A stretch of 47,079 bases of DNA, counting the filler, from Sphacelaria rigidula (lineage: Eukaryota), in the NCBI GenBank assembly GCA_964200075.2. It is 2 parts of 2 records of this genome, joined end to end, with 100 filler letters (N's around TTAATTAATTAA, not from the genome) between each part and the next. Parts side by side here need not be neighbours in the genome. Positions count along the whole stretch, not along the records: positions 23,607 to 47,079 come from CAXNAA020000260.1; 1 more part is not named here. The stretch is one strand, 5' to 3'. The notes beneath the pieces were generated by a model. It did no database searches, was not told the origin of the DNA, and saw only the letters and a list, made by a program, of their open reading frames with translations. Positions within the stretch are counted from its first letter, which is position 1; each line of letters starts with the position of its first letter. Positions 19,511 to 46,454 of this stretch are shown here, one piece after another. A program made the translations under genes and the position numbers.

Positions 19511-19519
19511 TAGACAGGT

Positions 19520-19965
19520 GAAAGGGGAACCAGCTAATAAACAGCGCCGTCACCAGCCGCAGCTGAAAAAGAAAGGCGGCAGCGGGACCGCTGGGTCCAA
19601 GCGCAAACCGAATGGTGGAAAAACGACGACTACTGGCAGTGAGAGTGTCATTTCTGGGAAATTTCGGGAACTGGGCCCAAGCCATGCAGGTTATTTCTCA
19701 CGTAGAGACAAGAGCCACTTCGTGAAGGATTGCAAGCAGCAATGCCAAGCTGCTGCTCGACAACATGCTGCAGGTGGGCAGTCAAAGACCGGCGACACGC
19801 AGCAACAACAGCAGCAGCTGTCGCAGGGCCCTGGACAGGCGCCTCGAGGAGGAGGCATGAGTCCTGCCGCTACAAGGGCTCTATTTTCAACCAATGGAGG
19901 GGGTGCTCCCAGCAGCAGTGGAGCGATGCTACCGCCAGAACCGTTCATTTCTACAGGTGGCTATA
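19520..19965 (+). mobile_element. Gypsy gag C-terminal fragment
   Basis: KQRRHQPQLKKKGGSG...KSHFVKDC...QQQQQQLSQGPG; inverted copy of about 16200-16630. Confidence 0.8.
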
Positions 19966-21735
19966 AATAGACTTCTGTCACTCAAGATCTGATCGCCATG
20001 TGGACTCCTCCCATCACTGGCACATGAACTTCAGCAGCTTTAGTTATTCATCAATGAACCTTTCGCATACACAGGAGAACGGAACCACAGCCTCTCTCCA
20101 CCAGAGTAGCAAAACCAAACCTACTCGCATGAAGGTCACCCATCACAGAGTCCGGCGATCAGACCCGCAACTCCACCTACACAATGACCCTAACCTTAGC
20201 TTACAATGGTGGCTAGAGTCTACAGCACTCCCAAAGCTCTCTACTACCAACAAGTAGTTATGTCAGAGCTTAACAAACTCAGACATCATTGGTATCTGAT
20301 AGTACCGTCGTTTTCCGTAAAGAATAGCAATCTCTTCCGCTGCTGTCGATAACAGCTCCACACAAGCTTGCCCCACTTCCAAACAACTCGCAAGAGATCC
20401 CAAGAAAATGTCGTCCATCATGAATATGCAATCACGCTACTTACACCACTTCGAGTTACAAAGCGATAGCTAGCGCCAAATTCTCAAATCTTCGCCCAAA
20501 ACAAGTCTCTTGACTCTTCATCGGCAAGCATCAGAAATGTCAGCGAACGTCGAATTCCAGACCATTCGTGACTCATGGTCCCTCTCATCCGAGACAAGGT
20601 ACTTCTCAACATACAAAATGCACTCTTGTACGTTCAACATCTGCGCAACGGAGTGCTCACTTGTTGCTTGCCTTAGTCATTAGTACAACAGCCAAATGAT
20701 ACATCATCCTCACGCTAGAAGGAAATAAGCACCCAACACGTCTAAAACGTATACATCGCATGCCTCGCCGCCGTCAAAGCTTCAATGCTTCAACTTGCCA
20801 TCATTTCATCAAGACAATCAAAGGAAAGCCATGACTCAAACCGCTATTCAAGTCATGCATACTAATCCAACGACGGCGAACGGACCTCGACCTCCACCAT
20901 CATCGATCACCCCTCCCTCGTGATCTCGTTTTCGAACTCTTGTGTTCGAGCGAATCCCAGATATTTCTATATCTCATTTGGATCTTGGACCGTCATATCC
21001 CATCCGTGCATCAGCCACAATGTAGAAATACTGAATCCCTCGACACGTTTGCAGTCCACCTGTACCAGTTCTTCGAACAAATGGACGCATCATCCACATG
21101 CTCCTTCTGACATCAACGAAAAACCAACCACGTTCATGTTCAAACACGTGACAATCCATACGAAAACGTGCCACGGTCAAAGATCATCGATGCATGCGCG
21201 CATAATGTCTTTATCTTCAACCACCGGAAGCACTCGCGTCATACCTGCTCTCACATACGACGAGTCTACGCATTTCGTATCTTCCAGCTCATTTTCACTC
21301 CAACAGCAGGTGTCACCGTCTCCTACAGTCAGTGCGAGCCTACGCATTTCGCAGTTTTTTTGCTCATTTTCACGCTAACAGCAGCAATCCATACATCCTG
21401 CAGTCAGAACGTGCAGACCGCACAAATATGATTCGACTGTGTTCCTGCGCGAACAAGATTATATCAGCTTCTCTTCATTTAGAATACAGCAGTATATTGA
21501 AAACTGCGGCACCCTAAGTCGTCACCAGATACCATTCATATCAGTACCATGCGAGTAAAAATTCGCACATGCCTGCCAAAATTCGACTCAGCATATGAAA
21601 ACCCGCACATGCATGCCAATATCTCACTCAGCACATGCAATGCCACCTTCCTCGCAGCAAACACCATGTATCATCCGTGCCAACCAGATCAGCACAACAC
21701 ACACATGCCAAATATCCACGTGTACGCCAGAGTTT
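19966..21735 (-). mobile_element. 3' non-coding region, PPT and LTR family 2 (LTR about 19966-20224)
   Basis: Inverted copy of 3110-4632; the LTR part matches 8048-8297. Confidence 0.7.
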
Positions 21736-26025: not shown

Positions 26026-26477
26026 TCAGAGTGGTCCATCACCTCCACTACAAATACCACCACCACCGCCACCTAAAAGCGTGATCTTCGCTTCTTTATC
26101 CGGTTGTTCGTCCCCTGCCGGTGACGTTTTTTCGGTTGCTATAAAGCCTCCCTCACCCGTGTCTCCGAGACCTACGTCCACGGGTGATATCTTACTCGAT
26201 TTGTTTTTCGAGAAAAAGGACGGCAACCCCTTAGTACCGCCGATTTTGCTGTTGCTCGTGCTGCGAGGCGACGTGGTCGTTTCCTCTGCCGTGCTGCTTG
26301 GAATAGCTCCAACACCCACGCCACCACTACCGACAACGTTGCTTGGGCTGCTTTTACTATTCTGTGGCTCCATCGGCGGTAGTCGTCTGATCATGTGTCT
26401 GCTGCTGCTGCCGTGACTGATGCTGCCGTGACTGATGCTGCTACTGGCGCCAGGCGCATCAGCATCAGCATCAGCAT

Positions 26478-26516
<39 letters not shown>

Positions 26517-26611
26517 CACTCGTAGTGTGGTCACCGGCGCCATCAGCGCTCTCTCGAAGCCCCCTATCAGCAGCCCCTGCCTCAGCAACGCATGTTGTTG
26601 TTGATGTCGAT

Positions 26612-26642
<31 letters not shown>

Positions 26643-29600
26643 CAGACGAGGAGGAGGATGACAGCCGTTGGCCCGCCGAGAGACTTTTGCCCGAGAGACT
26701 TTTGCCCGTGAAACTCGTACCCAGGCTTATAGAACGACGAGGGTACGTGCTGACACTTTCCCCGGGCAAGGACGACTGCAGTCTAGTGCTGGCTCCCAGG
26801 TAATCCGAGCGTTCTTGCTCCTTCAGCGCGTCCTCTGCAGCTTTCCCTTCAGACTTTTTTTCGGTCACAGTTGTGGCGGCATCGGAAAGAGGGGGGAGGT
26901 GGGCGCTAGGGAGTGGAACACAAGAGGGTGGGGACAGAAAGCGCGCGCCCGAGGGGGTACGCAGGGATTTGGGGGCAGGGAGTACTTGCGTGTCTTAGTA
27001 TGTATGCATTAGTAAATAGTTGCTCTGCCATTCGATCGCGCGTTGCCGAAAGGACAAAGGGTAGGAGGATGGTGTGGGTAGGCACGAGATCGGCGGGGGG
27101 GGCTCGATCGGGGAGACGATGTCGATACGGAGACAATGAAGGAGTCCAAAAACATTGAAAAAGTATCGAATACATTACTATATATCTAACGAATTACGGT
27201 ACAGTGAATACTGAGGGATGGAGAATTTTGTATCTCTTTGCGACTGCAATTGTGCGAATTAAAGCAAACCACCAGTCAGAGAAGGAGGGCTCATCGATGG
27301 AAGAATCTCAATACGGGATGCGGAGGGTGTCACCGATCTGCTGGCCGTACGGGAAGGTGCCGTTCTGGACAGGACAATGCCTGAGACGATGGGGCTCCTT
27401 CGAGATTTCGAGTGGAGTGTATCTTGGTGACTGTACTGATGAAACGAAAAACACTCGGACATAAGTTGAATTGGGCACTGCGAAGAATCCTGGTGTTATT
27501 TCTATTCTGTTTAGAGGAGGGGGGAGGGAATGAGTCAATGGTTCAGTGACGAAACACGTGCCTGCCGATGGATATATATATATATATATATATATGTATC
27601 TGATTGATGATGAAACAAAAGTAGCTGCTACGGATTTTCTGACTGGCGCACATTTCGACATCCCAGAGACTCAGTGCTTCTGTTGACTAGTGGAATGATG
27701 CCGTGTTATCATCCAGAAAAGTCTAATAGAAACCGAGGCAAAATCTGCATGTAAGGTCTTCAGACCTGGTTTCTGAAACCTCTATGTCTTCATTCTTGAA
27801 AATATATTCTAGAGCTGGTTTCGGAAACCAGCTATTTCTGAATTGCGCGAGTGGAACTTTATAAGCGCTGGTTTCTGAAACCGGCTACCTGCAGTCTTCA
27901 AGATGAATGATGAGACCTGATTTCCGTAACCACCCATCATCTCGATGCACTACATGACCATTTCTTCGCGACAGATGAGTTCACCCTTTGCGCGCGGGGG
28001 GGGCGGCGGCGGCGGCGGCGGCGGGGGGGATCGCGGCACCATTCATGTACATCTATTATAAATCAAGGTATGCATCAACACGATTCAGCAGCTTAAGCTT
28101 CTTCGATGATTATACCAGGCACTGCAGACAGGCCCACGAAAAGCGCCTTCCCATGGCCGCCTTCTTGTTCAGCATGGTGTCCGTATCCATCCTCGCCTCC
28201 AAATTCCACTTGCGAATCTGAAGCCTCGCGTGCTTCTCCAACAATGTCATCTTGTATCCCAGAACAAAGATCGACAGCACGAAGCTTACCTGATGGTTGT
28301 TAGGAATAATATATATCAGCAGAGAAGCAGAGGCGCCGATTAACATCAATGCGCTGTATATATACATATATATATATTGCCGACATCAACTCTGAGCGGC
28401 TCAGACATCGACGTTTCGCGCTGTGTCTTTTCGCTGCGATGGTTTAATATACATACATACATATCCACCGCGCCCCTCTTGTCCGGCCGGTACAGGGCAA
28501 AGTCAAACCGGTTAAGGGAGAGTTGGGGGTTCGAACTCCTGTAGAGATACGTCCTTTTCCTCCGTCGTTTTGACGCAAGGGCGTAAGTAGCTGATGGGGT
28601 ATATTTGTCGAACACCGACGCTGTGCGGAAGTATAAACCAATCTGCGATGCCAAGATGTCGGGTATGGGTATGGATATGTGTGCCGGAGGAGAGACGGGT
28701 TGGTTCCTTGAGACGAAATACTCGTCCCGAGCGAGGGAAGAGGTGGAACATGTTACGGGAAAGAACACACACATATTTATATGTACATGTGTATATATAT
28801 GTACGTATTTTGGTTGACGTCGACAACTGTACGTATCAGACTATGAGGTGTGGGTGTACTCATGATCTTGAATACCGTCGTCATCATGTGGCCACTGACC
28901 TCGCATCTCTGCAAATCGGGACGGAGCACACCTGTTTTTCACCGGACCGGGCTCGGAATCGTCAAGCTCGAGGCGCCGTGATGTGTTTGGCGAGTCGCAT
29001 GAGGGGTGATCTGCATGCTGCTAAGATTGTTCGACCCGAGAGGCGTACTAATTACCTTTCATAAGAATGACAGCCTCGGACGAGCTGCTTCATTTTCTTG
29101 TATCACAACCTCCAGAGACAGCCATGGGTTATACACTGCCTCATGGGTGTCTCACCATTTAAACACTACGTAGTACGATCATCCCCTTTGCGGGGACTTG
29201 AGGTTCTCCACCCCGTACGATGATCTAACTCGACCACCATCATGGGTACCGCAGGAAAACGCAGGCGGGAAAATAAAGGGTAGCCTGGTTGCCGAGCTTA
29301 CGCAGTAAGTGGCGTGTTTTTACAGCGCCGCTGTCAACCGACGCCAACCCTTCAAGGGAGCTGTACATCGGGCGTGCGGATTGGCAAGGGGTAAAGCTAC
29401 ACTAGGTTATCGTGTATTGTTGCTGGCTTCTCTTCACATCGAAACCCTTTCCGATCTCTGCGCAGTAACTTCTAACCTCCGTACCGAACATCTGATTCGG
29501 ACCCCTTCCGTAATCACAGGCCAACTACCGAGTAACTATCCGAATCAGGGTACCAGGAAATCGAAGAATAAAAATGAAGAAAAAGGACCCAGGAAGATCA

Positions 29601-32600
29601 ACACAGGCGCGAAAATTTGAAAGGAAGAAATGATGATGTTAAGGTTGATCTTTTTTCGCTTGTAACGCACACATTGCAATGATATCACACGTCGGACAGA
29701 CAATGACCCGTCTGAAATGACTAATCACAAAATATTCTAGAATTCGTTGGTCTACGAACACAAATATGTGACCGCGGAGTCAGGAAAGCCGGAGCGCAAC
29801 CTTCGCGCTACTAGGCGTACTCAGCGCTGTAGTGAAAAAACATGTAAAAGGGGGGATCAAATGATCCGGATCATGATCCGGATCAGACTAATGCCGAGAT
29901 AGCCCCCCCACAGAAAGTGCACGGGGGATCGTCCGACAAACCGGCTGCGATCCCACTATTGGGCTCATTTGCAGCAATTCCGCCCACATGAAAGGCTTGT
30001 AGCAGTCCGAAATCAGCTATAACGCCCAAATAAGTCGCGTCGTGGAACACGAAACCAGCTCTAACGGCATTTATGATCATCGCCTCCGTGCACATTTTTG
30101 GCCGGTTTCGGGCGGGGGCTATCTCGGCAGCGGTCATCAGTACACTGAGAGGAAGTAATTTTCAGACGGAGTTTTAATCTATCTGTCTGATGTGTGAATG
30201 CTATATTGACCCCGTATCCTGCAAGGTATGGTCTCGCCGGTGGCATTCTCGATGATTTTAGCAGAGGGTGTGAAGCTCTCTCGCGGCATGAAACAAGCAA
30301 AAACCAGAAACGACATTTTCTACGATAGCCCCCCTCCAAAAAGTGGCTGGTTTGGGGAGGCAAAATCTACACGTATATCGAAATGAAGAAAGCCGAACAC
30401 AACGACTAGCTGAGAAATCCCACGCTTGGGTTCATTTTCGTCAATGTCACCCATATGAGGCGCTTAATACAGCCCGAAACCGAACGTCAGGCGCTGTTTT
30501 ACCATTTTCTTTGTGACAGTTTTGGGCTGTTTTTTTTCTGGGGGGGGGGGGCTATCGTAGAAAGCGTCGAACGTGTTCTGACGGATCATCGCCCTCTCGG
30601 CTGCTCTATCGCAAGCGTTATTTGGAGCGTGATACCTGGGGCTGTTTCATGAGCTAAACATTTTTCCCATTGAGCCAGTGAGCGCACACTGATTCAACGG
30701 GCATCTGATCGCTTCCTGAGCACCCATTGAACCAGTGAGCGACTCACTCGTACAATGGGCAAATTGTTCGCTTGTTGAACAGACGTGACAGCGAATACCC
30801 GACCTAGTTTCCGTTGTAAGAAGACGGAGACGTCGCCGAGACCTCTGACGTCCAGAAATGATCATCGAGAAATGCCTCGGTGACCGGCAAATTTCCTTCG
30901 CCCACTGCGGGTACTCGTTATAAAAGAAAGTCGAGGATGAGTTTGCCATGGCTCCCAGGTCATGAATCCCGTATAACATCTACGTACGGTCGAGATCATT
31001 TTTTTTTTTTCCTTCTGTCTTTTTGGTGTGTTTGGTACGGCGCTTACCATAAAAACGACGTTGTTGGCCAGGTGCGGCTGACGGAGGAGGAGAAAGAGAT
31101 TGAGGAGGAGAAAAGGGACGTCCTCGAAGACGGCGATGATGATCCGCATAGAATTCAGGCTAATCAGACGCTGCACGCCGATGTGATGGCTCAGGTACTT
31201 GTAGTTGGCGAGGTGTGCAATCGATGACGCGGTGCCCAGGAAAAGGCGACGGAGAGGGAGAGGAGATGGCACGGGGAGGGGAGGGGGGGAGGGGAGAGGC
31301 GTACTCATTTGTTGCTTGCCTTAGTCGTTCGATCATTNNNNNNNNNNGCCTTAGTGGTATGAATAGTCCACACGCCACCCGTTCGGGACGGTTCACGGCC
31401 TTCGTTCCATATAGAGCAATCCCCATCATGGGACCGGGGGGGGGGGTCATGGTGGCGATCAATTTAATCCCGAAAGGCGTTGCCTGTAACCAATACACGG
31501 TCCGTGACCATGTTTCACCCATAGTAATACTAGACGGATCTTGTGATTTATCGCACTATACCAAACGCTGCACCGGAGGTCACGGCAGCGGAAGGATTGC
31601 TAGTATGTTGCTACAAGATTTGAAGTATGATCACGATAAACGACCGAAACAACAGCAATGCTTGATAGAGTGGGAGAAAAGGTTTTCCTCTGCACGATTC
31701 TGTACGAGATCAGACCTTAGTCAACCATTTCGCAAGGTTATTTTTACTACAGTAGTAGAGCTACTCGTAGATTTTCTTCTTTTTCTTTTGCAAGTATTGA
31801 AGAACTGCAAACAGTACCGTCCGTTCAAAAACACAGTATCGACGGTGTACATGTTTTCATGACGGTTTCGTTCAACAACACACCTTGTTTCCCCGGTCGA
31901 AAGGTACGTGCCGACGACAGGTCTTTTTCTGGGTCATGATCTGCAGTATGCTGTACTGCTTTTCGTAGTACAGCATGTTGTTCCCCGTGATCGCAAGCCC
32001 TACGGTGCGCTCCTGGATGGTTGTATATTTTTCGGTGCAGTGCGCACGCATGCAGGGTAGGTTCAAATACGGCAGCAGTAGACGGCGAAAAAGAAAAAAA
32101 AGCACAGAGGGGGGGGGGCAGCAAAGACTAATCATCATCAAAGCAGGAGCTGCACGTCTTTGGCTACTTGTGTGCAGCAAACAGAAAAAGGGGCCTTTAC
32201 GGGGGGGGGGTTATCTGACGTTCGGTCGTTGTGTTCGGGGGTCATGACTGGCGTATGCCGGGAGCATGCGCATACCACTAGTGCACCAGGACGCATGTAG
32301 CGATATGAATGCAGAGTTTTACCTTGACACACAGGATCCATCGTAACGCGCATGTTCAATACTATATATGGTTTGGTGGTGAGTCGCGGACTCGGGCTCT
32401 GTTGAGGACCCGATCCTTTCGTAGGCAAACCGCTCCGCGCCTGCAGCTTGTACGCGACAAGAGACTCATGTTGAGTTACCCGGTTTACATCGCAGAGAGA
32501 CAACAAACAGGTCAGCAACAACATCCACGCCCGAGTTTTTCCAAAAAAATACTGTTGGGGGTACGGAAGGAGAGGTGTCGGCGACAAGGATGGTGCACGC

Positions 32601-35600
32601 ACGGGTGGGGAGCATCCTTGGCTTGGGTTAGGCATCGAGTCGTCAAACTACAACAAAAATGTTGGGTACTTTCAACTGTTGGAGATACCTCTTGCATGTC
32701 AAGGATGATGATGGCCCGCGTGTGCACCCCATGAAGCGATGCCATAAGGGCAAACGCCACAACGATCGTGTACACTATCTTCATCGCGCCGGTCAACGCA
32801 GCCGTGTAGAGCAGAGAAGCATAAGCCCCTAGATCCGACATGAGGTCCATGATTTCGACTCCGCTGAACATGCTGTGTTTTGCGGGATGATCACACGCGG
32901 GCGGAAGCCGGAGAGCGAGGGAGGGGGTGGGCTAGCGGCTTAGCCTCGTACCCTTCGTATTTGTTTGGGTCACCGAAGCTGACGGCAGTGCTCCCGAAGA
33001 TCGCATCTTCTCGTGTAGATGTCAAGGGCGCGTGTCTCAACTTCATTTTTATCACCATCACGGTAAACTTCACAATGTCGTAGTGTGTATGGGTATGAAG
33101 TCCTCTTTGCTCCTAAGCCTTGAGCAGAGTACCGCTCAATGCTTGTCGAATCCCGAATAGCGTACTCGTACGGGGATGTGAGAGTAAAGCGACTTGGCGT
33201 ACTGTGGACGCCATATATGGATAAATTCACCACTTGGTGAACTTGTGGGGGCTATATTCTGTCCTGAACGCTCTGCACGATGTGAAACAGCACAAGCGAC
33301 AACACTCGGATACACAGACATATATCACAAGCACACGCGATGAAACTAAACCGCTAATAGTACAGCGAACACAGCATGCATCACTATTGCATGTTCACTC
33401 CAGACTCAGAATGTACAAAAACGCACGCCACACACACGGAGGACCCAACCCCATGCATCTCGAAACTAAAGGATGAAGAGTCAAGCTGCTCCTATCGCTG
33501 TGTACGCTGCCTGCGGAAGATCTGTTCACCTTATCCAGAACTGCTGTGCCACGATAAATCGGTTCATCTCCTCGTTTAGCTTCATGTGCACCTTCTCCGT
33601 GACCGGAATCCGCGTTCGGCAATTCTTCTCGAGGTAGGCGTAGATGAGTGTAAATATCACGAGAAACACGCCGGCGATGAGCAGATACAGCCCCACGAGC
33701 GTACCGTCTTCCTCCACCTCGGCGTAGCACTGCGATGACCCCGACTCGGACACCTGGTGGGACGTACGTGACCAAGACACGTGTGTAATTATTGCATGGA
33801 ACGAAAACTCCAGTCAGGCGATCTGCTCGTATCTGGCTCCACCTGTATGGGCAAAGATGATACATTGGCAGATGAACTGCGAACTCTCTGATCCCCATGG
33901 AAAAAAATCTTAATGTCACCGTTCTGACGTGACGTTTTGATACGTAGTCTTTGTCTCTTTTGGCGTTCGATTCACCCTCGGGGTATTCAATTGTTTTCTT
34001 GAACGGAATGGGAACAAATGCATCGCCACGGAGTGATTTACCATTCAGCATTCACGGCACTCAGCAACGGCTGTGTTCGCAGTGGCTTTTCGGCTTTTGC
34101 ACAAAATTCTCTTCATGTTCGACGGGGAAATCCATGTTGCGCGTGCTCCTACCGATCCGTTGAGACAGACGGTGCAGGCCTCCAACGACACCGCCCCGTA
34201 GTTTGGCTGCGAGAAGTTGGTAGGGCACTCCAAGCATGTAGAGGAACCAGTAGCGCCAACATCGGCAGAGTAGTATCCTGGCCAACACGAGGTGCACTCG
34301 CTCTCTGCCTTGAGCCCTTGTAGGTCAGAGCAAGCACAGAACTGTTTCGGTATGTGATCAACAGTGGGTGTTTTTTCATCATTTCGGATTAGTGCTGCAA
34401 TCGCAGGCAGTCTTACCCCGTGTACACAGTAGACGTCTGAGGGCAGACCGCATGGCTCGGTACAAAACATGGGAGTAGGAGTATACGAAAACGATGTCCC
34501 GCACAATGGAGTTTTGAATGGAATAAAGCAGTACACGTCCCAAGCAGCAACAGCTGGACATAGGTTCCGGTTGTCATGGGTCGAGTGCCCTAGGTAGTCC
34601 ACGTGGATTCTGTTCATGCTTCACCGCCTCCCTCACCGACCCAGCCATCAGTAGAACACAAATATTGCAGAAACATGAACACTACGCGGTCATTTCAGTC
34701 CAATAATATCACCACCCACTGGTGGTCGACCTAGTGTACAACAACACTATTTTGGGGGAATTTCGTGAAATTTGAATCCCGACACATTAATGAAGCTATT
34801 TTTTTCAGTTTCAGTCGGCCGAAAAATTGAGGACGAGATTGACAAATGTAACTCAAAGAAAGCTGACGGGTTGCAGTAGTGCAGATCCTATGCTCGATAA
34901 TAAAGCATACGCTAATCGATGGAGAGGAGGCGGGTAGATCCCCCTTGAGACTATGCACATGTTCTGAGGAACGACGGGAGGGGGGGGTGGTCAAAATCAC
35001 GACATGTTTTCGAATATACTAAAACTCAGTATCGCCGTTCACACCGCGTGTCCACTATCTCCCTCAGCGAAAACCCGGCGTGCTCCGTTCCGGCTTGGTA
35101 GGGATTCGAGGCCAATAGTCATAATACTACGGCATGCAAGATCATGCGTACATCTCCCCCTAACCCCCCTCCCCGCCCCACTGCCCCTCGAAGCTGAGCC
35201 CTCCACGCGTTATCAACCCACATGTCACCTTGCACTGCCCCGTACGTCCCGGCAGGACACAAAGTACAGTTTCCCATGGATGAGGATCCTTGGGCAGTAC
35301 CGTAAGTACCCAGAGGACACTGTGAGCACTCCGACAACGAGGCTGCCCCGGCTGCATTTGAGTACATGCCACTGGGGCATGGAAGACATTGGCCAGCGTC
35401 GTTTCCGTACACGTGCTTGTATGTGCCTAAGCCACATGGCTGGAGGTTCGGCAGTGGTAACGAGTGCGAAGCGCCGTAAGAGCGAATATTGTAGAGTGTT
35501 GGTGGCGCACGTTAAGATGAAATCTGCATCGAACAGCATGGTGCGCTCGAGGAGCAGACGTACGACAAGGCGACACCGACAGATTCCTTCGGTCTGTTTA

Positions 35601-38600
35601 GAGCCTAGATAGGGTGGAAGCTTGTCTGTCGTCTTACACCCCTCGTTGGAACCCTCTCTCTTGCCCTCTCTCTTGACGTTTCACGCTTGGCATACAGGCT
35701 CACCTCACACAAACCAGTTGCTTCAACAAAATAATGCCCTGGCCCGCACTCACACGAGGTGAGATTTGTAGCTCCAGCCGTTGCCGTCCGTGATCCGGAA
35801 GGACATGCTACACACGAGGGGCCAGGGCCAGTTCCACCCTTTCGTTTAGGGTCATCCGAAAAGTCAGACGGTGGGAGTATATGTGTTGTGTGCGTTTTCG
35901 TCCTATCTATCCTGGGCGCCCACACATTCTGGTGTATGTCAGCGTACCAGCCGGTGTCATAAAGGAGGAAGGTCACACAAGAGTCGTTTTCCCATTTTCT
36001 TTCCGGAGTGTTCGCCATAGTTTTGTGGGACAGAGAAAATGGGCATGATTGCATCATAGAGGCGGCTACCAACTGCCCGGTAATTTCCATTGATGCTCCC
36101 GATGAGTGAGTGCTGTCATAAACGCACTCACCATAAGAATGCGGATTAAGACAAACAAACACATCAGTGAATACATCTGTTCTCTTGGTTCCACCTCACC
36201 CTTTCATCGTAAAAATCGGCAGAACAAACGCATTGCCTCTCTTCCCATCTTCCAGCCAGGAGTGTTGTTGAGTTCGCAGGGCACGCCTGACAAATGCTGA
36301 CGAATGCGCCATCGTCATTGTTTCCCATTCTCGCATCATTTCCTCCGGCGTACCATCCCAGCGGGCACTTCGTGCAGTTCGCTCTGGACCCTTCGTACCT
36401 GCACTACCAAAATATGAATATTTACCGAGAAAACGGCATGGAGTCGAATGGGGTGTATAATGACCTTGGCTTCGACGAAGGCATTCTTCACTTGTTCCGC
36501 TACGCGTACACAAAGGAAAGGCGCAAATATTATGGTATTGCAGGACAACTTTGTACATGCTCTTGCAGACGTGGATTCAGTTTGTGCTATGTTATCCATC
36601 TTTTCTCGTACCCATAAATTTATCGGGTCTCGACTCACCCCTACCGTAGGCCACAAAAATTTCCTTCCAATAGCGCTCGCTGGTCAATTCCTCGATAGAC
36701 CAAAACAATGAGCGCCAAAATGACTCCGTCGACACCCCCTTTCATTGCAACATCCCATTGAATAAAAAATGCCTCCTCCCGACTCCCCCTCGAACTCTCA
36801 CCCGTCTCCGCAGGCACAAATGGAGTAGCGATCATAGGCAGGGTCCAAGACGACGGCGACCGCATCGCTCCCCTCGCTCCCAGGGACAGCATAAAGCGAG
36901 GAGCACACCGAAACATTATCGGTTGCCTCATATAAGAAGATGTCATCTTCGCTGTCTTCACCGGCCGTCACGGCCGCCGCGGCAGCTTCAACGTAGGACG
37001 GCAACGATGCATTGGAGAGGCTGGTTCCGGTCGCATAAAGCATAGTTAGGTCGGAGTAAGACTCCGGGATCGCACCAGTTATGCCCTTGTTATTCGAGAC
37101 ATCGAGAACCTCTATCCTTCGCTTGCCTAGGTGTATCGTCGCTGGCAGTTGCCCTTCGTGGTGTGTTTGCCGTTGGTAGGATGCGTGCATGCGCGTACAA
37201 GGGTAGATGGGTGCGACAGGTGTGAAGAAACCGATAGCTTGCTCGCGAAGCGTGGATGGGTGGGGTGGTGAGGATTTTGGCGAGAGAGCGGGATGCTGTC
37301 CTTTTCTTCTTGATTCACTTTGTAAAAGCTGGTGGAAGCCAGATGTAGTCAGCCGATTGCGATCTCGCGCCAAAGATTGATCCGTTGGAGAGGCCTTACT
37401 GTGATTCTCGCTTGTGGTTTTCGAGTTTCAGGGCACTGGAAGTCAGGCGCTTTTCCTCGCACTAGTACCTGCGGTGCTCAACGTGCTGGACAATATGGAG
37501 TTGATCACACGTCGGACAGAAAATGACTCGTCTGAAATGACAAATCAAAGAAGATTCTCGGACCTGTCGGTCGAAAAACACAAAATATGTGACCGCGGAG
37601 TCAGAAAAACCAAACCGCAACCTTTGCCCTACTCAGCGTGCTCGGCGTGCTTGGCGTGCTCGGGGTCTGGCGCTGTAGGGGGCAAACATGGGAAAGGGCG
37701 GCCAAATGATCCGAATCATGATCTGTCCGACGTGTGTTGATGAGGCAATATTGCGTAATAACCCACATCCCAGTCACCAACAAACTGTACGTCGATTTTT
37801 CATCCTCAGCTAAGCTGCCGTACGAAGCTTGCCTGTCGCCTGAGAGCACCTGTCAAGTCATTGCTATCCAGTGCGACTATGCGCAACAAGGGTCCTGCAG
37901 TGCCCGTAGCTTCCTCGTCGCAAGCGCTGCTGTTACCCCCTGCCGACGCGTCAGTATTGCAGTAGAATAGCGTTAGAACATCTTCCACGGATCCAGTCAA
38001 GGCATTCTTGCCCATATCCAACGTCTGCAGTGACTTGAGGGCAACGACTGTCTGCAAGGTCACGTACACCGTTGCGTTCAGAGCATTTCCTCGCAGTATC
38101 AGCGTGCGGAGTTCTGGTAGCCATGAAGATTCCGGTGCCAGGTGCACCACAGGGTAGGTGTAGCCGTTTTCAACCATTGAGCTGCCGTTACTTGCGTTGT
38201 TGTTCACTTCCAGCCACGCGCTCGGAAGAGAACTGCTGTGCGCGGAAAGCAAGTTTGGAGAGCCGGCCAAACCACAACGAGGAAATAGAGGGAAGGCGTT
38301 TGGTGTTTATACGCAAGAATGACTTCATCATCCGGGGTACCTATGTGAGAACCCGCGCAGTGCTACGCTCATGTTCGAGTTATGATCATAGCAGTGTCAG
38401 CAATACCGAGTGAGTGAATGAATACTTCTGCAGATTTTTTGTATGTATGATGGAAATTTTCCCATACCGCGGGCGTCGTCGTCGAGTATCTGCTGACTTC
38501 AGTCGTGCAGAAGCGAGGATCAGATTGCGGAGACAGCCTGCATTCGTGACACCCTAATTGGTACCGCATAGATGACATTTTGACTGATACGAAGACCAAC

Positions 38601-39263
38601 AGACAGCAGGATGGGGCCGTGCTCTGAATAGAGTGCTTGCGGGAGTATTGTGTATAGCCGTTTGTGAGCTCGTCGTCCCGGACTCCGATGGAGTGATGAC
38701 AAGTGACGCTGGAAAGCATGTACGAGATACGTCTGGAGAAGGCTTGTTGTATCGTACGAATATTTGTCCAGTTGTGAGTGATCCCTTACCCCTCACCCAG
38801 ATATGGCATTGCTCCGGACGGAGAGGTGTCGAAGTGACGAAGCGCCGGAGCCCCAAGATGAGGGAAATGAGGAAAGGTTGTTTTCGGAAAGATCAAGAAC
38901 TTCCAGTGCAGGCATCATACCCAAAACCAATGGCACTGCCCCGTACAGCCCATTTTCGGACAGATGCAGCTCTCGAAGCGATGCAATATTTGCGAGTTCA
39001 CTGGCGGAAGATAGGTCCCCGTCCAGGTTGTTGCTCGGTAGAGACACGGCGGTCACGTTTTGCGATGTACTGTCACATGTCACCCCATGCCAGTTACACA
39101 CTCCCGCAGCAGCATCGAGCCACCCGCTGGACGTGGTCCACTGGTATCCATTGGTGGCGACGTAGAGTGCCTCGAGTCCGGTGTACTGGAGGTCGGTATA
39201 GGCGGATTGTCCGTACAAAAGGTGAACGCAAAGGCGCAGATGTAGAATTAGGAACCGCCTCAT
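26026..39263 (-). CDS. Gene A: LRR + Cys-rich (TNFR/GCC2_GCC3-like) repeat receptor-like protein with about 5 TM helices and a Ser/Ala-rich C-terminal tail, about 1180 aa
   Basis: Phase-compatible exons reconstructed by eye: 39263-38797, 38235(or 38232)-37850, 37153-36802, 36398-36200, 35838-35704, 35439-35229, 34316-34153, 33753-33530, 32872-32689, 32012-31908(or 31884), 31197-31048, 28289-28161(or 28116; donor uncertain), 26853-26026. Signal-like start MRRFLILHLRLCVHLLYG; LRRNT LEALYVATNGYQW...CNWHGVTC; LRRs such as LEVLDLSENNL; repeats such as CPSGMYS and CPLGTYG; hydrophobic segments LVGLYLLIAGVFLVIFTLIYAYL, IVYTIVVAFALMASL, IIIAVFEDVPFLLLNLFLLL, VVFMVSFVLSIFVLGY. Confidence 0.85.
29686..30196. 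mobile_element. MITE with CACACGTCGGACAGA TIRs, containing an internal inverted-repeat-bounded segment (29892-30129)
   Basis: Left TIR at 29686; right TIR TCTGTCTGATGTGTG ends at 30196; flanks AATGATAT / AATGCTAT. First 200 bp match 37506-37736. Confidence 0.7.
30311..30569. mobile_element. MITE with about 22-bp TIRs
   Basis: CGACATTTTCTACGATAGCCCC ... GGGGCTATCGTAGAAAGCGTCG; partial copies at 24655-24839 and about 46870-47000. Confidence 0.75.
31338..31347. other. 10-N assembly gap inside an intron of gene A
   Basis: Direct read; an additional exon could be hidden here. Confidence 0.95.
37506..37736. mobile_element. MITE, 231 bp, perfect 15-bp TIR, in intron 2 of gene A
   Basis: CACACGTCGGACAGA ... 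TCTGTCCGACGTGTG, flanked on both sides by TTGAT. Confidence 0.85.
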
Positions 39264-39603
39264 TCGACTGGCAATATAGATAAGTGCATCAGCCAATGCC
39301 TTATATTCAGAACAACACCTTCGAAAGCAGGGAAGAGGTATATTCAACGAGGAAAGAGGCCAGCTATGCATTCGCAGGCATCCCACGGCCGAACACTCGT
39401 AGATCGTAGATGTGGGGACTGGTGTAAAGCTCGATCGCCAACCGTCACTAATCTCACCGCACCCAGCGCACAAGGCCAAGGGTGCAGCCGGGTCAGCCGG
39501 GGATTGCAACATGATCCACGATCGCCGCAGCCAGCTATACGGGCGATGACGAACGAACCAGGTACACAGTATCCCCAAGAGTGCAGACAACGAGACGTCA
39601 ACA
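39264..39603. promoter_or_regulatory. Putative bidirectional promoter / shared 5' region of genes A and B
   Basis: 340 bp between the inferred ATGs (minus-strand ATG at 39263, plus-strand ATG at 39604). Inferred from geometry only; no motif identified. Confidence 0.55.
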
Positions 39604-42600
39604 ATGCCTCACAAAGATCGATCCATCAACAACGGTGGTCGATTGCGCTCGACCCTTGCTTCAGCCGTGGCCACCTTCGCAGCAGGCGGATGGAGGCTCC
39701 TCCTCCCGCGTTTTGCGAATGTCGCCGCGAACATCTTGTCTAATTATAGCGATGCTCAATACTACGGACTCGAAGTCCTCTATAATGCCACCGATGGAGA
39801 GCAGTGGACACAGTCCAATGGCTGGCGCAACTCAACGCTAAGTGTGTGCAAGTGGCATGGGGTGACCTGCGACGCTGACTCGGGGAATGTGACCATGCTC
39901 TCGCTAGCTGACAACGGTCTCTCAGGGAACTTGACAGCGGAAGCGGGGGAATTAGATTGGTTTTTCGGCATCACATCTTTAACGGATATTGATATGTCAA
40001 GCAATCGGTTGGTCGGGCCTGTGCCGGCCGGACTGGGTATGATGCCTGCTCTGAAGTCTCTTGATCTATCACGGAACTTACTGTCTTCATTCCCGGAGGC
40101 CTGGGGATCGAACGCTACGTCCCTAGAGCACCTGAGTCTTCAATTTAACAACATTTCGGGGTAAGCGGCATAACAATTGCGGGGGGGGGGCATTCGAGGC
40201 TTGTGTAAGCGCTACTATACACTACAACAGTGCAAAGCACGATAATCCGACCAGTCGCTCACTTCAATAAGTGTTGTGCGGGTGAGATCAACTGCTATGC
40301 CAAAGTGGCTCACGGCTGGAGTGTGACGTTACATGTTGGCACTAAACAACTCAGTCGCCGCGTGTCGGCCGCTGTTCTCCCACGAGCATTTCAAGCAGGG
40401 TCAGTTCTTCCACTTGATTTTGGTATCGAACTGTTGGCGTTCTTGTGCTTTTGTGCATGGTGAAATCATGGCGTTCTTATACTTGATTCCGGTATCACAT
40501 AATCGATTTGCTCTATACCTCTGATATTCTCACGCCTAGCGTGTATCGGAGCGTTGGCTCTTCCAATATTTTTTTCCCACCAACACGAGAGCCAACGTTG
40601 CGATAATTTTATGTGAAAAAAATAAATTTCAAGGGCGTTGTGTTCGTGGTTTTGCGGAGCCCTTTCGGCACCTCAGAGGTGCACAATTTTGCAAAGATTT
40701 CCACATGGAAAAGTGGTCGCTATAACTGGCCCTCAGGTACCCGATGCTACACAAAACCAGAGCGCTGATTGCTCAATATAGTATTGGGTGACGACGACGT
40801 GTGCAAAGTCAACACTCGTCACAGGTGCCCGCCCACATAACAAACTCTGCACGATCCTGATCACGTCATTCTGCTACCGTTGTGCCCAACGAAACACGCG
40901 ATGTACAATAGGACGTTGCCTTCACAGTGGCTGGACCTCAACGACAGTACTGCCACAGACTCCTATCCGCTAGTGCACTCGGAAGAGTTCTCCACCTGGC
41001 TACCAGAGCTTCGGACCCTGTCCTTGGGCAGCAACAACATCACCATGACCGTCTACCAAGCCTTGCAATCATGCATTGGCCTACAGTCCCTACAGAGCAT
41101 AGACTTCAGCAACAACGTCCTAACGGGAACCCTTGATGGAGGATTCGACTGGTACTATTGTGAGGATCAACATATCAGCAATATCAGTAACACCTCGTGT
41201 GAATCGGCATCTCTGAGATCAGGAGCATCCATCGTGCTGGCAATCTTACTGCTCGGATCGAACTTGATATCTGGGGGAGTCGCACAGGAGGGCGCTTTGC
41301 CGTTGTCTCTCTCCGTGCTCGCAGTTTCGCAAAATTTATTGCACGGGCCGGTGCACGAAAATTTCTCGCAGCTGTCAGTTTTCTTTGCTGGTGAGAAGAA
41401 AGTGGTGCCGCAGGATGTGCTCCAGTGAGACTGACAGAGAGAATCCGGGATGGAAAGAGTTTGTAGTAGAGGTTCGAATAAAGTTTGAAGTAAATCGTCG
41501 TCTGTGCGGTATGCTGTATGGCGTATCGGATTTCGATTTAAGAACAACGGCCCGTGTTGCTAGTACCCTTCCTGCACACTCGACCGTACGCGAGCAAACG
41601 AGCTGGCAGCGCCTAGGAGCGGGTGATGTGTTAGGGTTTTCAGTGGTAATATATCCGTTAGGTGGATAACAATGCACTTGGTGACTGAACGAGGGCAGGA
41701 CGATATATCATTAGCCGTCGTCATTCGATGGCGACGGGAACGGGAACCGCGCCAGAAACACTTGACAAGCTCACCCCTGGAGCAAGGTAGTACTGCATAT
41801 ATTTCATCTAGACATGACGGGCTCTTGGTGGACGTTTTCAACATGAATCAACGAGGCACATCGACAACAGAACACACGTGTACACACACATTTTTCCCGT
41901 ATTTAACCATCGTAAGGTGTTTCACCGCAGATGGCAACAGCGGACTAAACGACACATCGCTCCCTAGCTTTGCGTCGTACGCAAACAGCACGGCAATTAC
42001 GGTGGGACACGGAAACCTAACTTGTCCTGCTATCTCGGGTGAGAACAACTACGACGACTCTGGGAAGGCAGGACCTCACGTCCGGTTGAGACTCGATGCC
42101 TCCTACCTAGGGTATCGCCACTGCGTTTGCAACCAGGGCATGGAGGTGGGTGATATACCAACTAGGGTAAGGGGACATAAAAAGCAAAAACAAGTAGCAA
42201 AAATTCTGGCTGGCTTGGTGCGCGAAGGTAGTCTTACTTGAGTTGAAGCGTTGTCGAAGTTACCGTTGGCGAAGGGAAAAACAAAGTTGATACGTTTTGT
42301 GAGTGATGCTGCCGACCATGTGATTCGTTGGTTCACAGAGTATTGTAGTGCGCAGCCTTCTAGCAGGAGTACATCGCACAGAATTTTACGCAACAAGATG
42401 AGCGTACGGGAATGATGTAAGAGAGGCCCACTAACGCGTACGAGATGAACGTCTTCAATATGCTCAGTCCTCGTCTATTGAACCAAAATTATTTCGAAGA
42501 TGATATCACCAGCCGCAGCAACAAAGCGGTACCTTGCATGTTCAGGGGAATTTCGAGGCGGGATGCGTACCTTGTCCGAGGGGAAGCTACAGGGAGCACG

Positions 42601-45600
42601 CGGGGCTCTTCGCTTCGCCGCACTGCACTGCGTGTCCGGTTAACTCCGGTACTACGATCACTGTAAGTGGGTTCAACCTCAAACTTGACGAACTGGGGGG
42701 AAAGTAATCTAGCAACCCGAACCATAACCCTTTACTCGCCTTCCCTTAGAACTATCCGCTTGGGACATCATGTATATCTACACACACATATACATATATA
42801 TATATATATATGTGTGTGTCTAGTTTCGTCTTGTTCCTGCCGGCGCTTTTGCTTGAAGAATTCCGTTGAATCTCTCACGAGGTATGCGTACATGTGTTCA
42901 ACGCTCCACTTTTCTTGAGACGAGTCGACAGCACCAAGGGACCATCCCGCCTCGCTCCCGGTACTTGCTGGACTATACATTTTCCGACTTTTATCGATTT
43001 TATCTGATACGCACGTCCTCACGATTTCAACGACAAAGACAAGAATAAAGGGTAGAAGACATATGTGATCATACTCTTGAGCACCCGGAACCATAAAAGA
43101 GGTCCACCTGAACTGATCGTCGGGGTACGAGTCCGATCACCGGGGCGTGACCGTTGTGTTCACGAGTATTGCATCAATAGATGCATTACCGTACGCGTCA
43201 TAAAACAAGAACCAGGGGGGCAGGGAAGAGAATCCCACGAACGGGATCTCACACAAGCCAGAACGTCCTTGCGGTACGCCGGCGTACATCAGGGCGCCAA
43301 AAACCTCGTCACATACTACTGTACTCTTCAATCCTTCCCGACAAACGTGGCGCCACATGCTGTCTGTGTCTCACCTTCTGCAGGGGGCGGCATCCCCCTC
43401 GGAGTGCAAATGTGATGCAGGTTTTTACGATGCCCTCGCGGGCGAAGGGGAAAGTGGACCCTCTTGCACACCTTGTGTATCTGAAAGCGGCGGGTGGAAT
43501 TCGCCGGGGGCGATCGACGTGACTGTTTGCTCATGCTCGGCCGGCAGCTACCTGGACCGCGAATCTAGGACTTGCGTGAATTGTCCGATGGGGACGTATA
43601 AGGTCAACAGCTAATGTAGTACAGCAGGCAATACCGTTCGGTTGTGCGACTATGTAAACGCATGTTGTACGATGAGATTTTTTTCCATACAATCAGCCCT
43701 ACTTCGAGTGCGAGCATAGGGTGTTGAGCCGAGAAAGCGAGGGGTTTTCGCTGCTTGCCCGATTGCGTCAAAACCTCGACGGGTATACCGAGGTTGCGCA
43801 CGAAATCTGTCATCACACTCATGCAGATTAGTAGTTCGTGCTTGCTTTTCCTGCGTGACTAATGACGTCGATTCTGTCCCCTGCGCTAACATACACTCGA
43901 TGGAAATATGCAAAGCTGGGTTACCACATACTTACCCTTTTTTACCCTCCACTCGTCCCGAATATACGCCTTTCCACCCTGCCGTGGGCTTTCAGCCTAC
44001 TGAAGGGAATGACAGGAGTCTTTGTTTGCCATGCGTTGAGGGGAGCTACTCCAGTGAAACCGGACAGGTCTCCGCCGACACGTGCGCGGTATGAGAGAGC
44101 TGTGCCTTGCTCAGTTTTCGAACCCCTCGCTGCAGGTGGAATTTTGGAGCTGGGAGGGGGGGAGAGGGGGGGGGAGGGGGCAGACGTCTAGATCAGGCAC
44201 GACTCCTTAATGAATGTAAAGACATGTGTTCCGAGTGACGAGGAATAATTATCGCCCGTCTCGGGTCAACACGCTCGCTTTGTCTCGTACCTTATGAACC
44301 TTTATTTTCCAGTAACGCATGCTGTCTGCATATTATTCCCCAGAACAAAAGAGACATTCAACACGCACATCGCGCTCGCATTATAAGGACGAAAAGCACC
44401 AGAGTTGCATACTATTTACTCTCAAGACGAATACTCCTGTTTTCGACGGGGAAGATGTCCTTGCTGTAAAAGTAGTGTACCTCCCCTCCCCTGTGCACCA
44501 CTCCGTCTCGAAATGGATGCGTGGTCAATGGTCAAACGACTAAGCCAAGCAACAAATGAATACGCCCCCCCCCCCTCCCCCCCGGTGTACCACACACACA
44601 TCACGGCGCTTCGCGCTTGGTGATCGCGGGCCTAGTCCGACGAAAACCCGGCGTGCTCCGTCCTGGCTCTACATGGATGCAAGGCCAATGACCATATGAC
44701 TACGGCATGCAAGATCGTGAGTACACCCGCGCACCACTCCCATGTACGCCCTCCCCTGCATTTTTTCCGTAACTCGTCTTTTGTGAACAGTCGTGCGACG
44801 TGGGCACCTACTCGACGACAGTAGGGGCCGAATCGTCTTCGGAATGCCTGCCTTGCCCCAGCGGAAGATATTCCTCCCTCACCGGGCTCTTCGACTCCGA
44901 GTTGTGCATGGCTTGCCCTCCAGGATACTACCAGGAATATGAAGGTGTGCAGTCATTATGCTCAGAAACATGAGTTCGAGCAGCCACGAGGGAAGGCGCA
45001 GACCACATGCGGTGGTTGTGGCGCCAGCTATATCTCGGGACTCAGGGTTTCGTGAGCATGCCGGCGGGAGGGGGGGGGGGAGGGGTACTTGTATGTTGCT
45101 TGCCTTTGTCGTCTGACCATTGACTATGCATCCCTTGCGAGACGGAGCATGGTGGAGGTGGGGGAGGTTGTTCACATGATAAGCGCTGCGGGAAGTAATC
45201 AAACCTATCGATCTCCGTGCTTTCGGTCTAACATCATCACAACACTGACAGAGGGGTGTCGAGCTGCAGTACAGTAGCTCAAAGTGAACACTCGACTCGA
45301 ACTACCATATTGTTGTCACGTACCTCTATCGCACTATTATAGACAAGCTGTCGCTAAATACGCAGCTCGACTTCATTCACACAGCACCGACTTCATTCAC
45401 ACAGCACCGACTTCATTCACACAGCACCGTGCCCTGGTTGGCGCGTTACTTGCGTCGTGTTGGTGGAAGGTGGCCGCGCGGGGTAGCGGTGGGGCGGGGG
45501 TATGAGGAAGAGCGAGGAGTATCTGGATGGTTTGCAGAACATGCTGGATGCAAGAAACACTTATGCTGTCAGCACATCCGCAACCGTGCCCATGCCTCGC

Positions 45601-46454
45601 TCAGTCACGAGGGGGACGAAACGCGTGACTCAGCACTACTATCTTGAAGGAACATACTGTTACATGATTCACGACCCAGATCTTCCCAAGAATATAGAAC
45701 ATGAGTTCCTTCAAGACACAGTCAGGCACTTCTCCTCCTGTTCTAATGCCTTGTGCGACAAATCGCTCTCTCCGCGTAGAGATGCAATTGCCTTAGCCCT
45801 GGAGTCAGTAATCGCCCCGACGGTTTTCGCCTTCTTGTCGCGTGGGTATTTATAACGAGGCGTGTCCGTTTTTTTCTTTCTTCAGGAGCAACAGACTCGG
45901 AATCCTGCGAGCCGTGCGACCCCGGCAAGTACTCGACCGAAATTGGTGAGCATCCGTGGATTGTGGAAAGGAGATAGTGGGACAGATAATAACATGCATC
46001 CCCTTCGAGACAAAGCATCGTTCCTACTCCTGAGTGAATGGGCGCGCACGGGGGGGGGGGGAGGTGAACGTGGGAGTATCGCGTGCTTCACATTTTTGTC
46101 CTCCTGCAGCGGTCAAGCAATATTGAATATTGCACACAGATGTAACCGCGGCCCTTGTTATCCACGGTACAGAGATCATTCCTCGACAAAAAAAAAGAAT
46201 GTACTCTCCGCTCTCGTTCGTTGGTGGTCCTTCTGTCGTTGCTCTCTCTCCTTCTTCCGCCTTTGTATTGGCGACAGGCGCGTCGTCCGGGAGTTCCTGC
46301 AGCTGGTGCGCCGACGGGACGTATTCACTGGGGGGCAGCCACGAGTGCGAGTTGCTCCTGACCAACTCGCGCAGGACGCTGGCGATCTATCTCATCGTAG
46401 GGTCCTCCACCCTGACCGCCATCATTATCTCCTACTTTACCTGGGAGAGAAAAC
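39604..46454 (+). CDS. Gene B: paralogous LRR + Cys-rich repeat receptor-like membrane protein (about 690 codons visible; 3' end probably beyond the window)
   Basis: Phase-compatible GT-AG exons: 39604-40160, 40912-41390, 41931-42145, 42546-42662, 43384-43602, 43996-44088, 44791-44944, 45886-45945, 46278-46454. LRRNT LEVLYNATDGEQW...CKWHGVTC; LRR LKSLDLSRNLL; repeats CPRGSY, CPMGTY, CPSGRY, CPPGYY, CDPGKY; TM LAIYLIVGSSTLTAIIISYFTW. Collinear with gene A. Confidence 0.85.
44495..44730. repeat. Dispersed intronic repeat family
   Basis: 44640-44727 matches about 35067-35152 and, in part, 23630-23657. 44498-44583 matches 45066-45150 and 31290-31337 in inverted orientation. Confidence 0.65.
45368..45429. 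repeat. Perfect 20-bp tandem repeat x3 (CGACTTCATTCACACAGCAC)
   Basis: Direct read of the sequence. Confidence 0.95.

Follow-up and report, generated by a model that had tools for sequence, protein, structure and literature searches.

The window considered here, a stretch of 47,079 nucleotides from Sphacelaria rigidula (GenBank assembly GCA_964200075.2; positions 23,607 to 47,079 come from record CAXNAA020000260.1), is eukaryotic, with a GC content of ≈50% and three short N gaps. It carries two multi-exon genes in divergent orientation, gene A on the minus strand with its ATG at 39263 and gene B on the plus strand with its ATG at 39604, and the two ATGs are 340 bp apart. A sequence-only reading of the same DNA had described two spliced genes on opposite strands with just this spacing, and our models bear out that layout. 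We assembled both models manually across GT-AG sites, with the repeat pattern and, at a later stage, orthologous proteins as guides. The start chosen for gene A is the first ATG with a signal-peptide-like leader, and that for gene B is the first ATG of the plus-strand open reading frame (ORF). The gene A model comprises 12 exons that run from 39263 to a stop codon at 28110 and join in frame, without an internal stop, to encode 920 amino acids. The gene B model comprises nine exons in the window (39604-46454) and encodes 698 amino acids. Both reading frames had been proposed to be intact, and in these models they are indeed open, that of gene A to its stop and that of gene B as far as the window contains it. 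The features of the locus are given below, with identities to P0082 from Cladosiphon okamuranus, P0083 from Pylaiella littoralis, P0149, and P0146 from Laminaria digitata. LRR stands for leucine-rich repeat, TM for transmembrane helix, the island for a non-repeat segment, and the C-module for the region that follows TM1.

38797..39263, minus strand: gene A exon 1, with ATG 39263, signal-peptide-like leader, LRRNT, and LRR 1-4; donor GTGAGG, phase 2; 57-58% to P0082, P0083, and P0149
37824..38232, minus strand: gene A exon 2, LRR 5-7; acceptor at 38232 or 38235; 38-42% to B-type orthologues (those of the gene B kind)
36802..37121, minus strand: gene A exon 3, final LRR plus island; acceptor AAG, with 37850/37126 as an alternative junction
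36200..36398, minus strand: gene A exon 4, first Cys-rich modules
35704..35838, minus strand: gene A exon 5, Cys-rich; AAG acceptor; alternatives at 35928 or 35911 (25-30 residues more)
35229..35439, minus strand: gene A exon 6, Ephrin_rec_like repeats, 56.6 bits
34153..34316, minus strand: gene A exon 7, last Cys-rich modules; AAG acceptor
33530..33753, minus strand: gene A exon 8, TM1 (LVGLYLLIAGVFLVIFTLI) and juxtamembrane segment; 59% to L. digitata P0146
32689..32863, minus strand: gene A exon 9, TM2-TM3 of the C-module; acceptor at 32863 or 32872
31884..32012, minus strand: gene A exon 10, cytoplasmic loop of the C-module; 89% to P0146
31048..31197, minus strand: gene A exon 11, amphipathic helix and TM4, with the motif D.P...LN; 87% to P0146
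28110..28289, minus strand: gene A exon 12, TM5, coil, and stop codon (28110-28112); 93% to P0146
39264..39603, no strand: spacer between the two ATGs, 340 bp, GC 0.54; would hold both 5' untranslated regions
39604..40160, plus strand: gene B exon 1, with ATG 39604, leader, LRRNT, and LRR 1-4; donor GTAAGC, phase 2, in position and phase as in gene A
40912..41390, plus strand: gene B exon 2, LRR 5-8; 54% to P0082 and P0083
41931..42166, plus strand: gene B exon 3, island; 58-63% to orthologues
42546..42662, plus strand: gene B exon 4, Cys-rich
43384..43602, plus strand: gene B exon 5, Cys-rich; weak GTC donor
43996..44088, plus strand: gene B exon 6, Cys-rich
44791..44944, plus strand: gene B exon 7, Ephrin_rec_like
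45886..45945, plus strand: gene B exon 8, Cys-rich
46278..46454, plus strand: gene B exon 9, with the final Cys module and TM1; followed by a phase 1 GTGAGC donor

The two genes are clearly related in their ectodomains. The stop-to-stop ORFs that contain the first exons, 38793-39608 on the minus strand and 39550-40164 on the plus strand, share 46% identity over 204 residues (BLASTP, E 2e-48), close to the earlier estimate of about half by eye, and the motifs quoted with that estimate (CxWHGVTCD, LGMMPAL, and LSSFP..WGS.A.SL.HLS...N.ISG) all lie within the alignment. The second exons are 32% identical over 166 residues (E 3e-26), and across the ectodomains as a whole 262 of the 639 aligned residues (41%) are identical. 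Intron 1 is the only intron whose position and phase are common to the two models. On the minus strand the exon-1 frame of gene A stays open well upstream of the chosen ATG, across 39264-39608, and holds a further in-frame ATG (…RMHSW…); a start at this codon would lengthen the leader by ≈40 residues and shorten the distance between the starts of the two genes.

In both genes LRR_8/LRR_4, LRR_1, and Ephrin_rec_like (PF07699, in several downstream ORFs) score above the Pfam cut-offs, and LRRNT_2 (PF08263) lies just under its cut-off of 20.7 bits, at 19.2 bits in gene A and 20.6 bits in gene B. Each protein has ≈8 LRR cores, ten CxxC half-modules at a spacing of 20 residues, and 14-15 N-glycosylation sequons, and the stalk modules are of the Ephrin_rec_like type, CxxCPxGxY. 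The pair had been called kinase-less, and Pfam finds no Pkinase match in any exon of either gene or in any relative. Nor does it list NB-ARC, TIR, or coiled-coil (CC) domains in the window genes, where only LRR and Cys-rich families appear. The domain order originally given, leader-LRRNT-LRR-Cys-TM, is present in both genes; its endpoint has to be revised, however, because TM1 is not the terminus in gene A or in any full-length relative, where a module with four additional TM helices and a coil follows it.

This C-module was recognized in P0082 and P0083, which run on past TM1 for ≈250 residues that contain four additional hydrophobic helices as well as a basic helix of the coiled type. When a hidden Markov model (HMM) of the C-module was compared with all 1253 ORFs of the window, the three best matches were colinear on the minus strand (32515-32931, 30865-31320, and 28113-28385) and belong to gene A, whose protein is predicted to have five hydrophobic segments. 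The L. digitata protein P0146 maps onto the C-module exons of gene A and onto 31884-32015 at 87-93% identity, and onto the TM1 exon at 59%. More generally, the exons of gene A chain colinearly along both P0083 and P0146. Sixteen columns in the TM4-TM5-coil region are invariant across A-type proteins (gene A and its L. digitata counterpart) and B-type proteins alike; among them are one Asp and one Asn within TM4 and the Glu-x-His that follows TM5. The genes of this family are thus predicted to encode five-TM proteins.

The two ends of the locus differ from what the sequence-only reading had supposed. It had extended the gene A stretch to 26026; the gene instead stops at 28110, and P0146 ends at the same exon. 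The ORF at 26026-26994 was considered as a last exon of gene A and set aside, given the stop at 28110, the end of P0146, the lack of any Pfam or family match in this ORF, and its CAG/CTG repeats. These trinucleotide repeats (26399-26661) form many imperfect inverted arms, and several overlapping frames are open through them on both strands; the long low-complexity ORF exists because the repeats hold several frames open. At the other end, gene B is truncated by the window, since its last exon ends after 46454 at the GTGAGC donor, the very point at which the orthologues run on into the C-module. Plus-strand ORFs from 46454 to the end of the window gave no match to the C-module HMM. The remaining exons of gene B are predicted to lie beyond the window end and to encode a C-module; those past 47079 would be expected to carry WAVFFHTLE, KILKHLQ.NKFKVQL, and AVFSAGKISTLIEYHLELR.

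We compared the C-module with known sequences and folds. Pfam gave no match, a C-module profile gave none among PDB sequences at E≤10, and a Foldseek search of the C-module model against the PDB gave none at E≤1e-3. AlphaFold2 predicts TM1 followed by four long helices both for a B-type module (mean predicted local distance difference test score, pLDDT, 66; predicted template modeling score, pTM, 0.52) and for the A-type P0146 (pLDDT 66.7, pTM 0.54). In VIA-align, the XKR scramblases are among the best structural matches of both models, with Z-scores of 11.2/10.8 for XKR9 (7p16; 137-144 residues aligned, rmsd 3.8-3.9), 9.4/9.8 for XKR4 (9boj), and 8.4/8.5 for XKR8 (8xej), but soluble or designed four-helix bundles are tied with them (9.7/11.0 for 6n63 and 9.3/9.8 for 9u78), and all of these Z-scores lie under the level that the tool states for helical proteins. 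The XKR proteins also have eight TM helices and two re-entrant helices, unlike the five TM helices of the family described here, and XK-related PF09815 is not listed at E≤10 for P0089, P0146, P0092, P0082, or P0147. An ESM Atlas search with the C-module gave a best score of 0.87, below the level of 0.9, with XK-related proteins at rank 26 (0.78), and was taken as noise. A class C GPCR-like identity (NCD3G and seven TM helices) was rejected; NCD3G reaches 26-36 bits against a cut-off of 38.9, there is no match to a 7tm family, and the TM helices number five rather than seven. As modeled, the C-module would be a membrane bundle of four helices in a generic up-down arrangement, for which no known relative could be identified.

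To place the two genes within a family, we examined their relatives exon by exon. Exon 1 returned 81 matches at E≤1e-5 among 1905 candidates, and those inspected were generic LRR proteins, none of them a family member; this search was uninformative because it was swamped by generic LRR proteins. Exon 2 of gene B retrieves P0082 and P0083 at 54% identity. The corresponding search with exon 2 of gene A gave three generic LRR matches among 1662 candidates and no A-type orthologue, which is weak evidence of absence. The C-module served better. An exhaustive HMMER search over 1.84 billion representatives returned 60 proteins at E≤1e-3, mostly short fragments, and all of the named matches are from brown algae or Tribonema. 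The ten family proteins looked up include representatives from Nemacystus, Ectocarpus sp., Choristocarpus, Cladosiphon, Pylaiella, Laminaria digitata, and the xanthophyte Tribonema gayanum. In these sequence searches the family has so far turned up only in brown algae, in a single xanthophyte (Tribonema), and in a few unnamed records. The Ectocarpus cluster holds CBJ31938, annotated as 'Hypothetical leucine rich repeat and GCG domain-containing receptor'. Precomputed annotation lists PF26010 on P0082 and P0083. Further fragments consisting of the C-module only, P0092/P0148 (NCBI), P0144 (JGI), and P0140 (Logan), are 25-50% identical to the B-type and suggest one or more additional paralogue groups or else further host lineages; P0092/P0148 fall between Tribonema and Choristocarpus in the tree, on a long branch.

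The two window genes stand in very different relations to these proteins. In tblastn comparisons with the Ectocarpales proteins, gene B is colinear and 54-63% identical in every exon, and its exons chain gaplessly along residues 7-660 of the Pylaiella protein P0083, whereas gene A reaches 57-58% in exon 1 only and 26-42% thereafter. Over the colinear LRRNT and LRR block, gene B is 54-60% identical to P0082, P0083, and P0149. CBJ31938 and its relatives from Pylaiella, Cladosiphon, Nemacystus, Choristocarpus, and Tribonema gayanum have a full domain order like that of gene A and, as far as the window contains it, gene B. Gene B matches them at 54-63% exon by exon; gene A, in which exon 1 is 57-58% identical and the C-module is present but only 24% identical, is a far more divergent subtype. 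By sequence comparison, gene B is the conserved orthologue of Ectocarpus CBJ31938 and gene A a fast-evolving paralogue in the same family. Identities to the Cladosiphon protein, region by region, are as follows:

Exon 1: gene A 58%, gene B 58%, Tribonema 41%
Exon 2: gene A 39%, gene B 57%, Tribonema 39%
Island: gene A 35%, gene B 67%, Tribonema 43%
Cys-rich stalk: gene A 40%, gene B 58%, Tribonema 45%
C-module: gene A 24%, gene B not in the window, Tribonema 42%

For the C-module, Choristocarpus and Cladosiphon are 60% identical. Between gene A and L. digitata P0146, identity is 92% in the C-module (190 of 206 residues) and 50% in the TM1 region, and because of this level of identity, together with the retention of the 16 invariant columns, we regard gene A as constrained though fast-diverged. 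A and B are saturated for synonymous differences (pS 0.72-0.73), with dN of 0.39 in exon 1 and 0.67 in exon 2, and the duplication is therefore old. In a maximum-likelihood tree, gene A and the L. digitata A-type share a branch of 4.2 substitutions per site that lies inside a brown-algal clade excluding Choristocarpus (support 92/88), where the order of branching among the A-types, gene B, and the Ectocarpales proteins is not resolved. A tree had been suggested as a check for separate A and B clades; the A-types do come together on one branch, and B-type monophyly is weak (53/80). The notion of old inverted duplicates that were both retained fits these values and the single shared intron position, and both copies look maintained, the C-module of gene A being 92% identical to that of L. 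digitata.

On this evidence we think it probable that genes A and B are inverted tandem duplicates of a small orphan receptor-like family, one copy of which has stayed conserved while the other has evolved fast yet under constraint. Gene A would have arisen within the brown algae and then diverged very quickly except in exon 1. The family members would be large, glycoprotein-like membrane proteins with a signal peptide, an LRRNT cap, ≈8 plant-type LRRs, a non-repeat island, and ten 20-residue CxxC half-modules of Ephrin_rec_like/TNFR-like type, followed by TM1 and then by a highly conserved module of four TM helices that ends in a basic coiled helix. In such a protein the LRR and Cys-rich ectodomain would bind an extracellular ligand or wall component, and the signal would cross TM1 to the four-helix membrane bundle with its invariant intramembrane Asp, Asn, Glu, and His positions and pass from there to the cytoplasmic coil, which might engage partners.

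Several points weigh against this reading. The exon junctions of both genes are our own choices, guided by orthologous proteins rather than by transcripts. Four gene A acceptors are AAG (37121, 35838, 34316, and 31197), and among these only that of exon 11 (31197) is corroborated by L. digitata P0146 (DRGNK|YLSHH); AAG acceptors may be tolerated in this genome, or the other gene A junctions may be off by a few residues. The C-module of gene B is predicted from its orthologues and would lie outside the window, and a receptor function for the family is suggested by its domain types. The tree has 11 rows, several of them partial, and its A branch is very long; the best tree makes the B-types monophyletic, with the weak support just given, and a duplication in the kelp lineage only is not rejected by the approximately unbiased (AU) test (p 0.40). 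Outside exon 1, finally, gene A is as far from the B-types as Tribonema is, or farther, so that an older split of A and B followed by homogenization of exon 1 is possible.

The first group of these points bears on whether gene A is functional. It could be a decaying or nonfunctional duplicate whose open frame is an artifact of hand-chosen junctions, and the very long A branch, the four nonconsensus acceptors, the several junctions with alternatives, and the failure of the gene A exon-2 search to find an A-type orthologue for the ectodomain would all agree with that. We nevertheless hold decay to be very unlikely. Twelve exons join in frame into 920 residues with no internal stop and are colinear with P0083 and P0146, dN is well under the saturated dS, and the invariant positions of the family are kept in gene A. 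The uneven conservation relative to L. digitata, 92% in the C-module and 50% around TM1, fits selection and not neutral decay.

The age of the split is a separate matter. Were the A/B divergence to predate that of brown algae and xanthophytes, the likeness of the first exons would have to reflect ancient gene conversion or extreme constraint on the LRR cap. The identities in the C-module (24% for gene A vs 42% for Tribonema) and in the island (35% vs 43%) lean in this direction, but in exon 1 gene A is 58% identical to the B-types and Tribonema only 41-43%, the tree puts the A-types inside the brown algae (92/88), and a grouping of A with Tribonema is borderline rejected by the AU test (p 0.045). 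Long-branch attraction, moreover, would draw A towards Tribonema and not away from it, and the synonymous sites of exon 1 are saturated, so any conversion must itself be old. We consider this older origin quite unlikely. A recent gene conversion of exon 1 can be discarded, with its synonymous sites saturated and gene A equally far (58%) from gene B and from the Cladosiphon B-type.

If A and B are old inverted duplicates, what does their head-to-head arrangement mean? The spacer at 39264..39603 is presumed to act as a bidirectional promoter of both genes. In the part of the Phaeoexplorer preprint drawn on here, neighboring brown-algal genes are reported to favor opposite strands, and the spacers of divergent pairs to be short and linked to nucleosome-depleted regions that the two genes share (10.1101/2024.02.19.579948). 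Because short divergent spacers are a general trait of the lineage, one of 340 bp is ordinary in brown algae, and because opposite-strand neighbors of this kind are common there, the head-to-head layout alone carries little weight. Shared regulation is plausible, and the two genes would probably use the spacer as a common bidirectional promoter, which is the usual situation in divergent brown-algal pairs. Most simply, however, the pairing is a by-product of the inverted duplication and is not proof of an obligate two-component receptor. A metagenome scan for synteny, made with a two-row alignment, returned three loci at 25-34% identity, which are not orthologues.

The sequence-only reading had favored a more ambitious interpretation, a co-expressed and possibly heterodimeric surface receptor. 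In the form weighed here, A and B would make up a co-regulated two-component receptor, either sensor and helper or an obligate heterodimer, driven from the shared 340-bp promoter, with B as the conserved signaler and A as the specialized partner. The proximity of the two ATGs would suit such a system, as would the retention of both genes with the same module count, the strongly asymmetric divergence (B conserved, A on a branch of 4.2 substitutions per site yet constrained), and the 16 invariant TM4-TM5-coil positions kept in A. Set against this, the gene arrangement is a common trait of brown-algal genomes, and B-type proteins occur in four Ectocarpales species in which no A-type was found, a weak argument given that A-type scores are near the detection limit (E 4.5e-4). 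The pattern of divergence also runs the wrong way, since the presumed signaling module of gene A has diverged most (24%) and its LRR cap least (58%), the opposite of what a ligand-chasing sensor would show. We therefore regard a two-component receptor as unlikely. A narrower version would make A and B a two-gene receptor unit of the kelp lineage, expressed from one 340-bp bidirectional promoter and acting jointly, for example as a heteromer through the TM4-TM5-coil region, in which both would keep the 16 invariant positions, and we find this quite unlikely. It is equally unlikely that, within such a unit, A would be the rapidly remodeled partner with its own tightly conserved four-helix module and B the conserved member. 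If true, brown algae would gain their first described pair of genes for a cell-surface receptor, and a lineage-restricted membrane signaling module that has no Pfam family or solved relative would gain a function.

The model of inverted duplicates can be set beside better known systems. The LRR receptor-like proteins (RLPs) of plants, of the Cf-9, EIX2, and RLP23 type, are also among the generic matches of exon 1. Like A and B, they have a signal peptide, plant-type LRRs of 24 residues, and no kinase, as well as an LRRNT-like cap (borderline by LRRNT_2 score in A and B), and generic LRR similarity is 30-40%, but plant RLPs are single-pass proteins with a short tail and without an Ephrin_rec_like stalk, whereas the present family combines a ten-module Cys-rich stalk with five TM helices. 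Membership in the plant type was accordingly rejected, since gene A and the full-length relatives carry four further TM helices and a coil in place of a single TM and short tail. Head-to-head pairs of nucleotide-binding LRR receptors (NLRs) in plants, such as RRS1/RPS4, RGA4/RGA5, and Pik-1/Pik-2, resemble A and B in their divergent orientation, short shared spacer, and asymmetric divergence of the partners. A and B differ from them in being membrane proteins and in having no NB-ARC, TIR, or CC domains, so the analogy would extend to gene arrangement only. Brown-algal LRR receptor kinases, as far as the source drawn on describes them, also bear an LRR ectodomain on a membrane protein and belong to the same lineage, but A and B have no kinase, and their output module is a four-TM bundle with a coil.

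The sequence-only reading had not recognized the architecture or arrangement as a described system. That holds in part: the B-type is annotated in Ectocarpus as CBJ31938, and a literature search on the family (including CBJ31938/D7FVL7 and PF26010) found no paper. CBJ31938 is known by its annotation name only, and the Ectocarpus gene is not known to lie head to head with a paralogue. The family is thus annotated but unstudied. Brown algae evolved complex multicellularity independently, and their receptor repertoire is still being cataloged. A survey of 60 brown-algal genomes names receptor kinases, histidine kinases, integrins, DEK1, fasciclins, and tetraspanins, and in the portion of its treatment of membrane-localized signaling proteins drawn on here there is no mention of this LRR/Ephrin_rec_like family (10.1101/2024.02.19.579948). 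The family joins a plant-like LRR ectodomain to an animal-like Cys-rich stalk of Ephrin/TNFR type and to a membrane module without a Pfam family or solved relative. Given its lineage restriction and its unmatched membrane module, the family is a candidate for a sensing system specific to the lineage, which might respond to cues from the cell wall, gametes, or pathogens. The unequal pair of A and B is a natural experiment on which parts of such a protein tolerate change, and the locus is a concrete place to ask whether divergent promoters couple paralogous receptors.

The window also contains further repeats. Positions 1-24000 hold long repeated ORFs in both orientations (for example, 177-707 on the minus strand and 5096-5626 on the plus strand; 5604-6272 and 15895-16929 on the minus strand and 19452-19970 on the plus strand). 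By eye these ORFs look like fragments of retroelement gag and integrase, with a hAT-like piece at 18907-19395. Pfam on seven ORFs of this region listed only DUF659, under the cut-off and in one of the seven, which does not back the transposon reading. Around the receptor genes themselves, short dispersed repeats of 55-145 nucleotides, 75-85% alike and in either orientation, occur in the introns of both. The sets are 29684-29826/37504-37647, 31283-31337/44527-44581/45067-45121, 35068-35178/44641-44751, and 28919-28989/44593-44663, and these intronic repeats look like small nonautonomous mobile elements.

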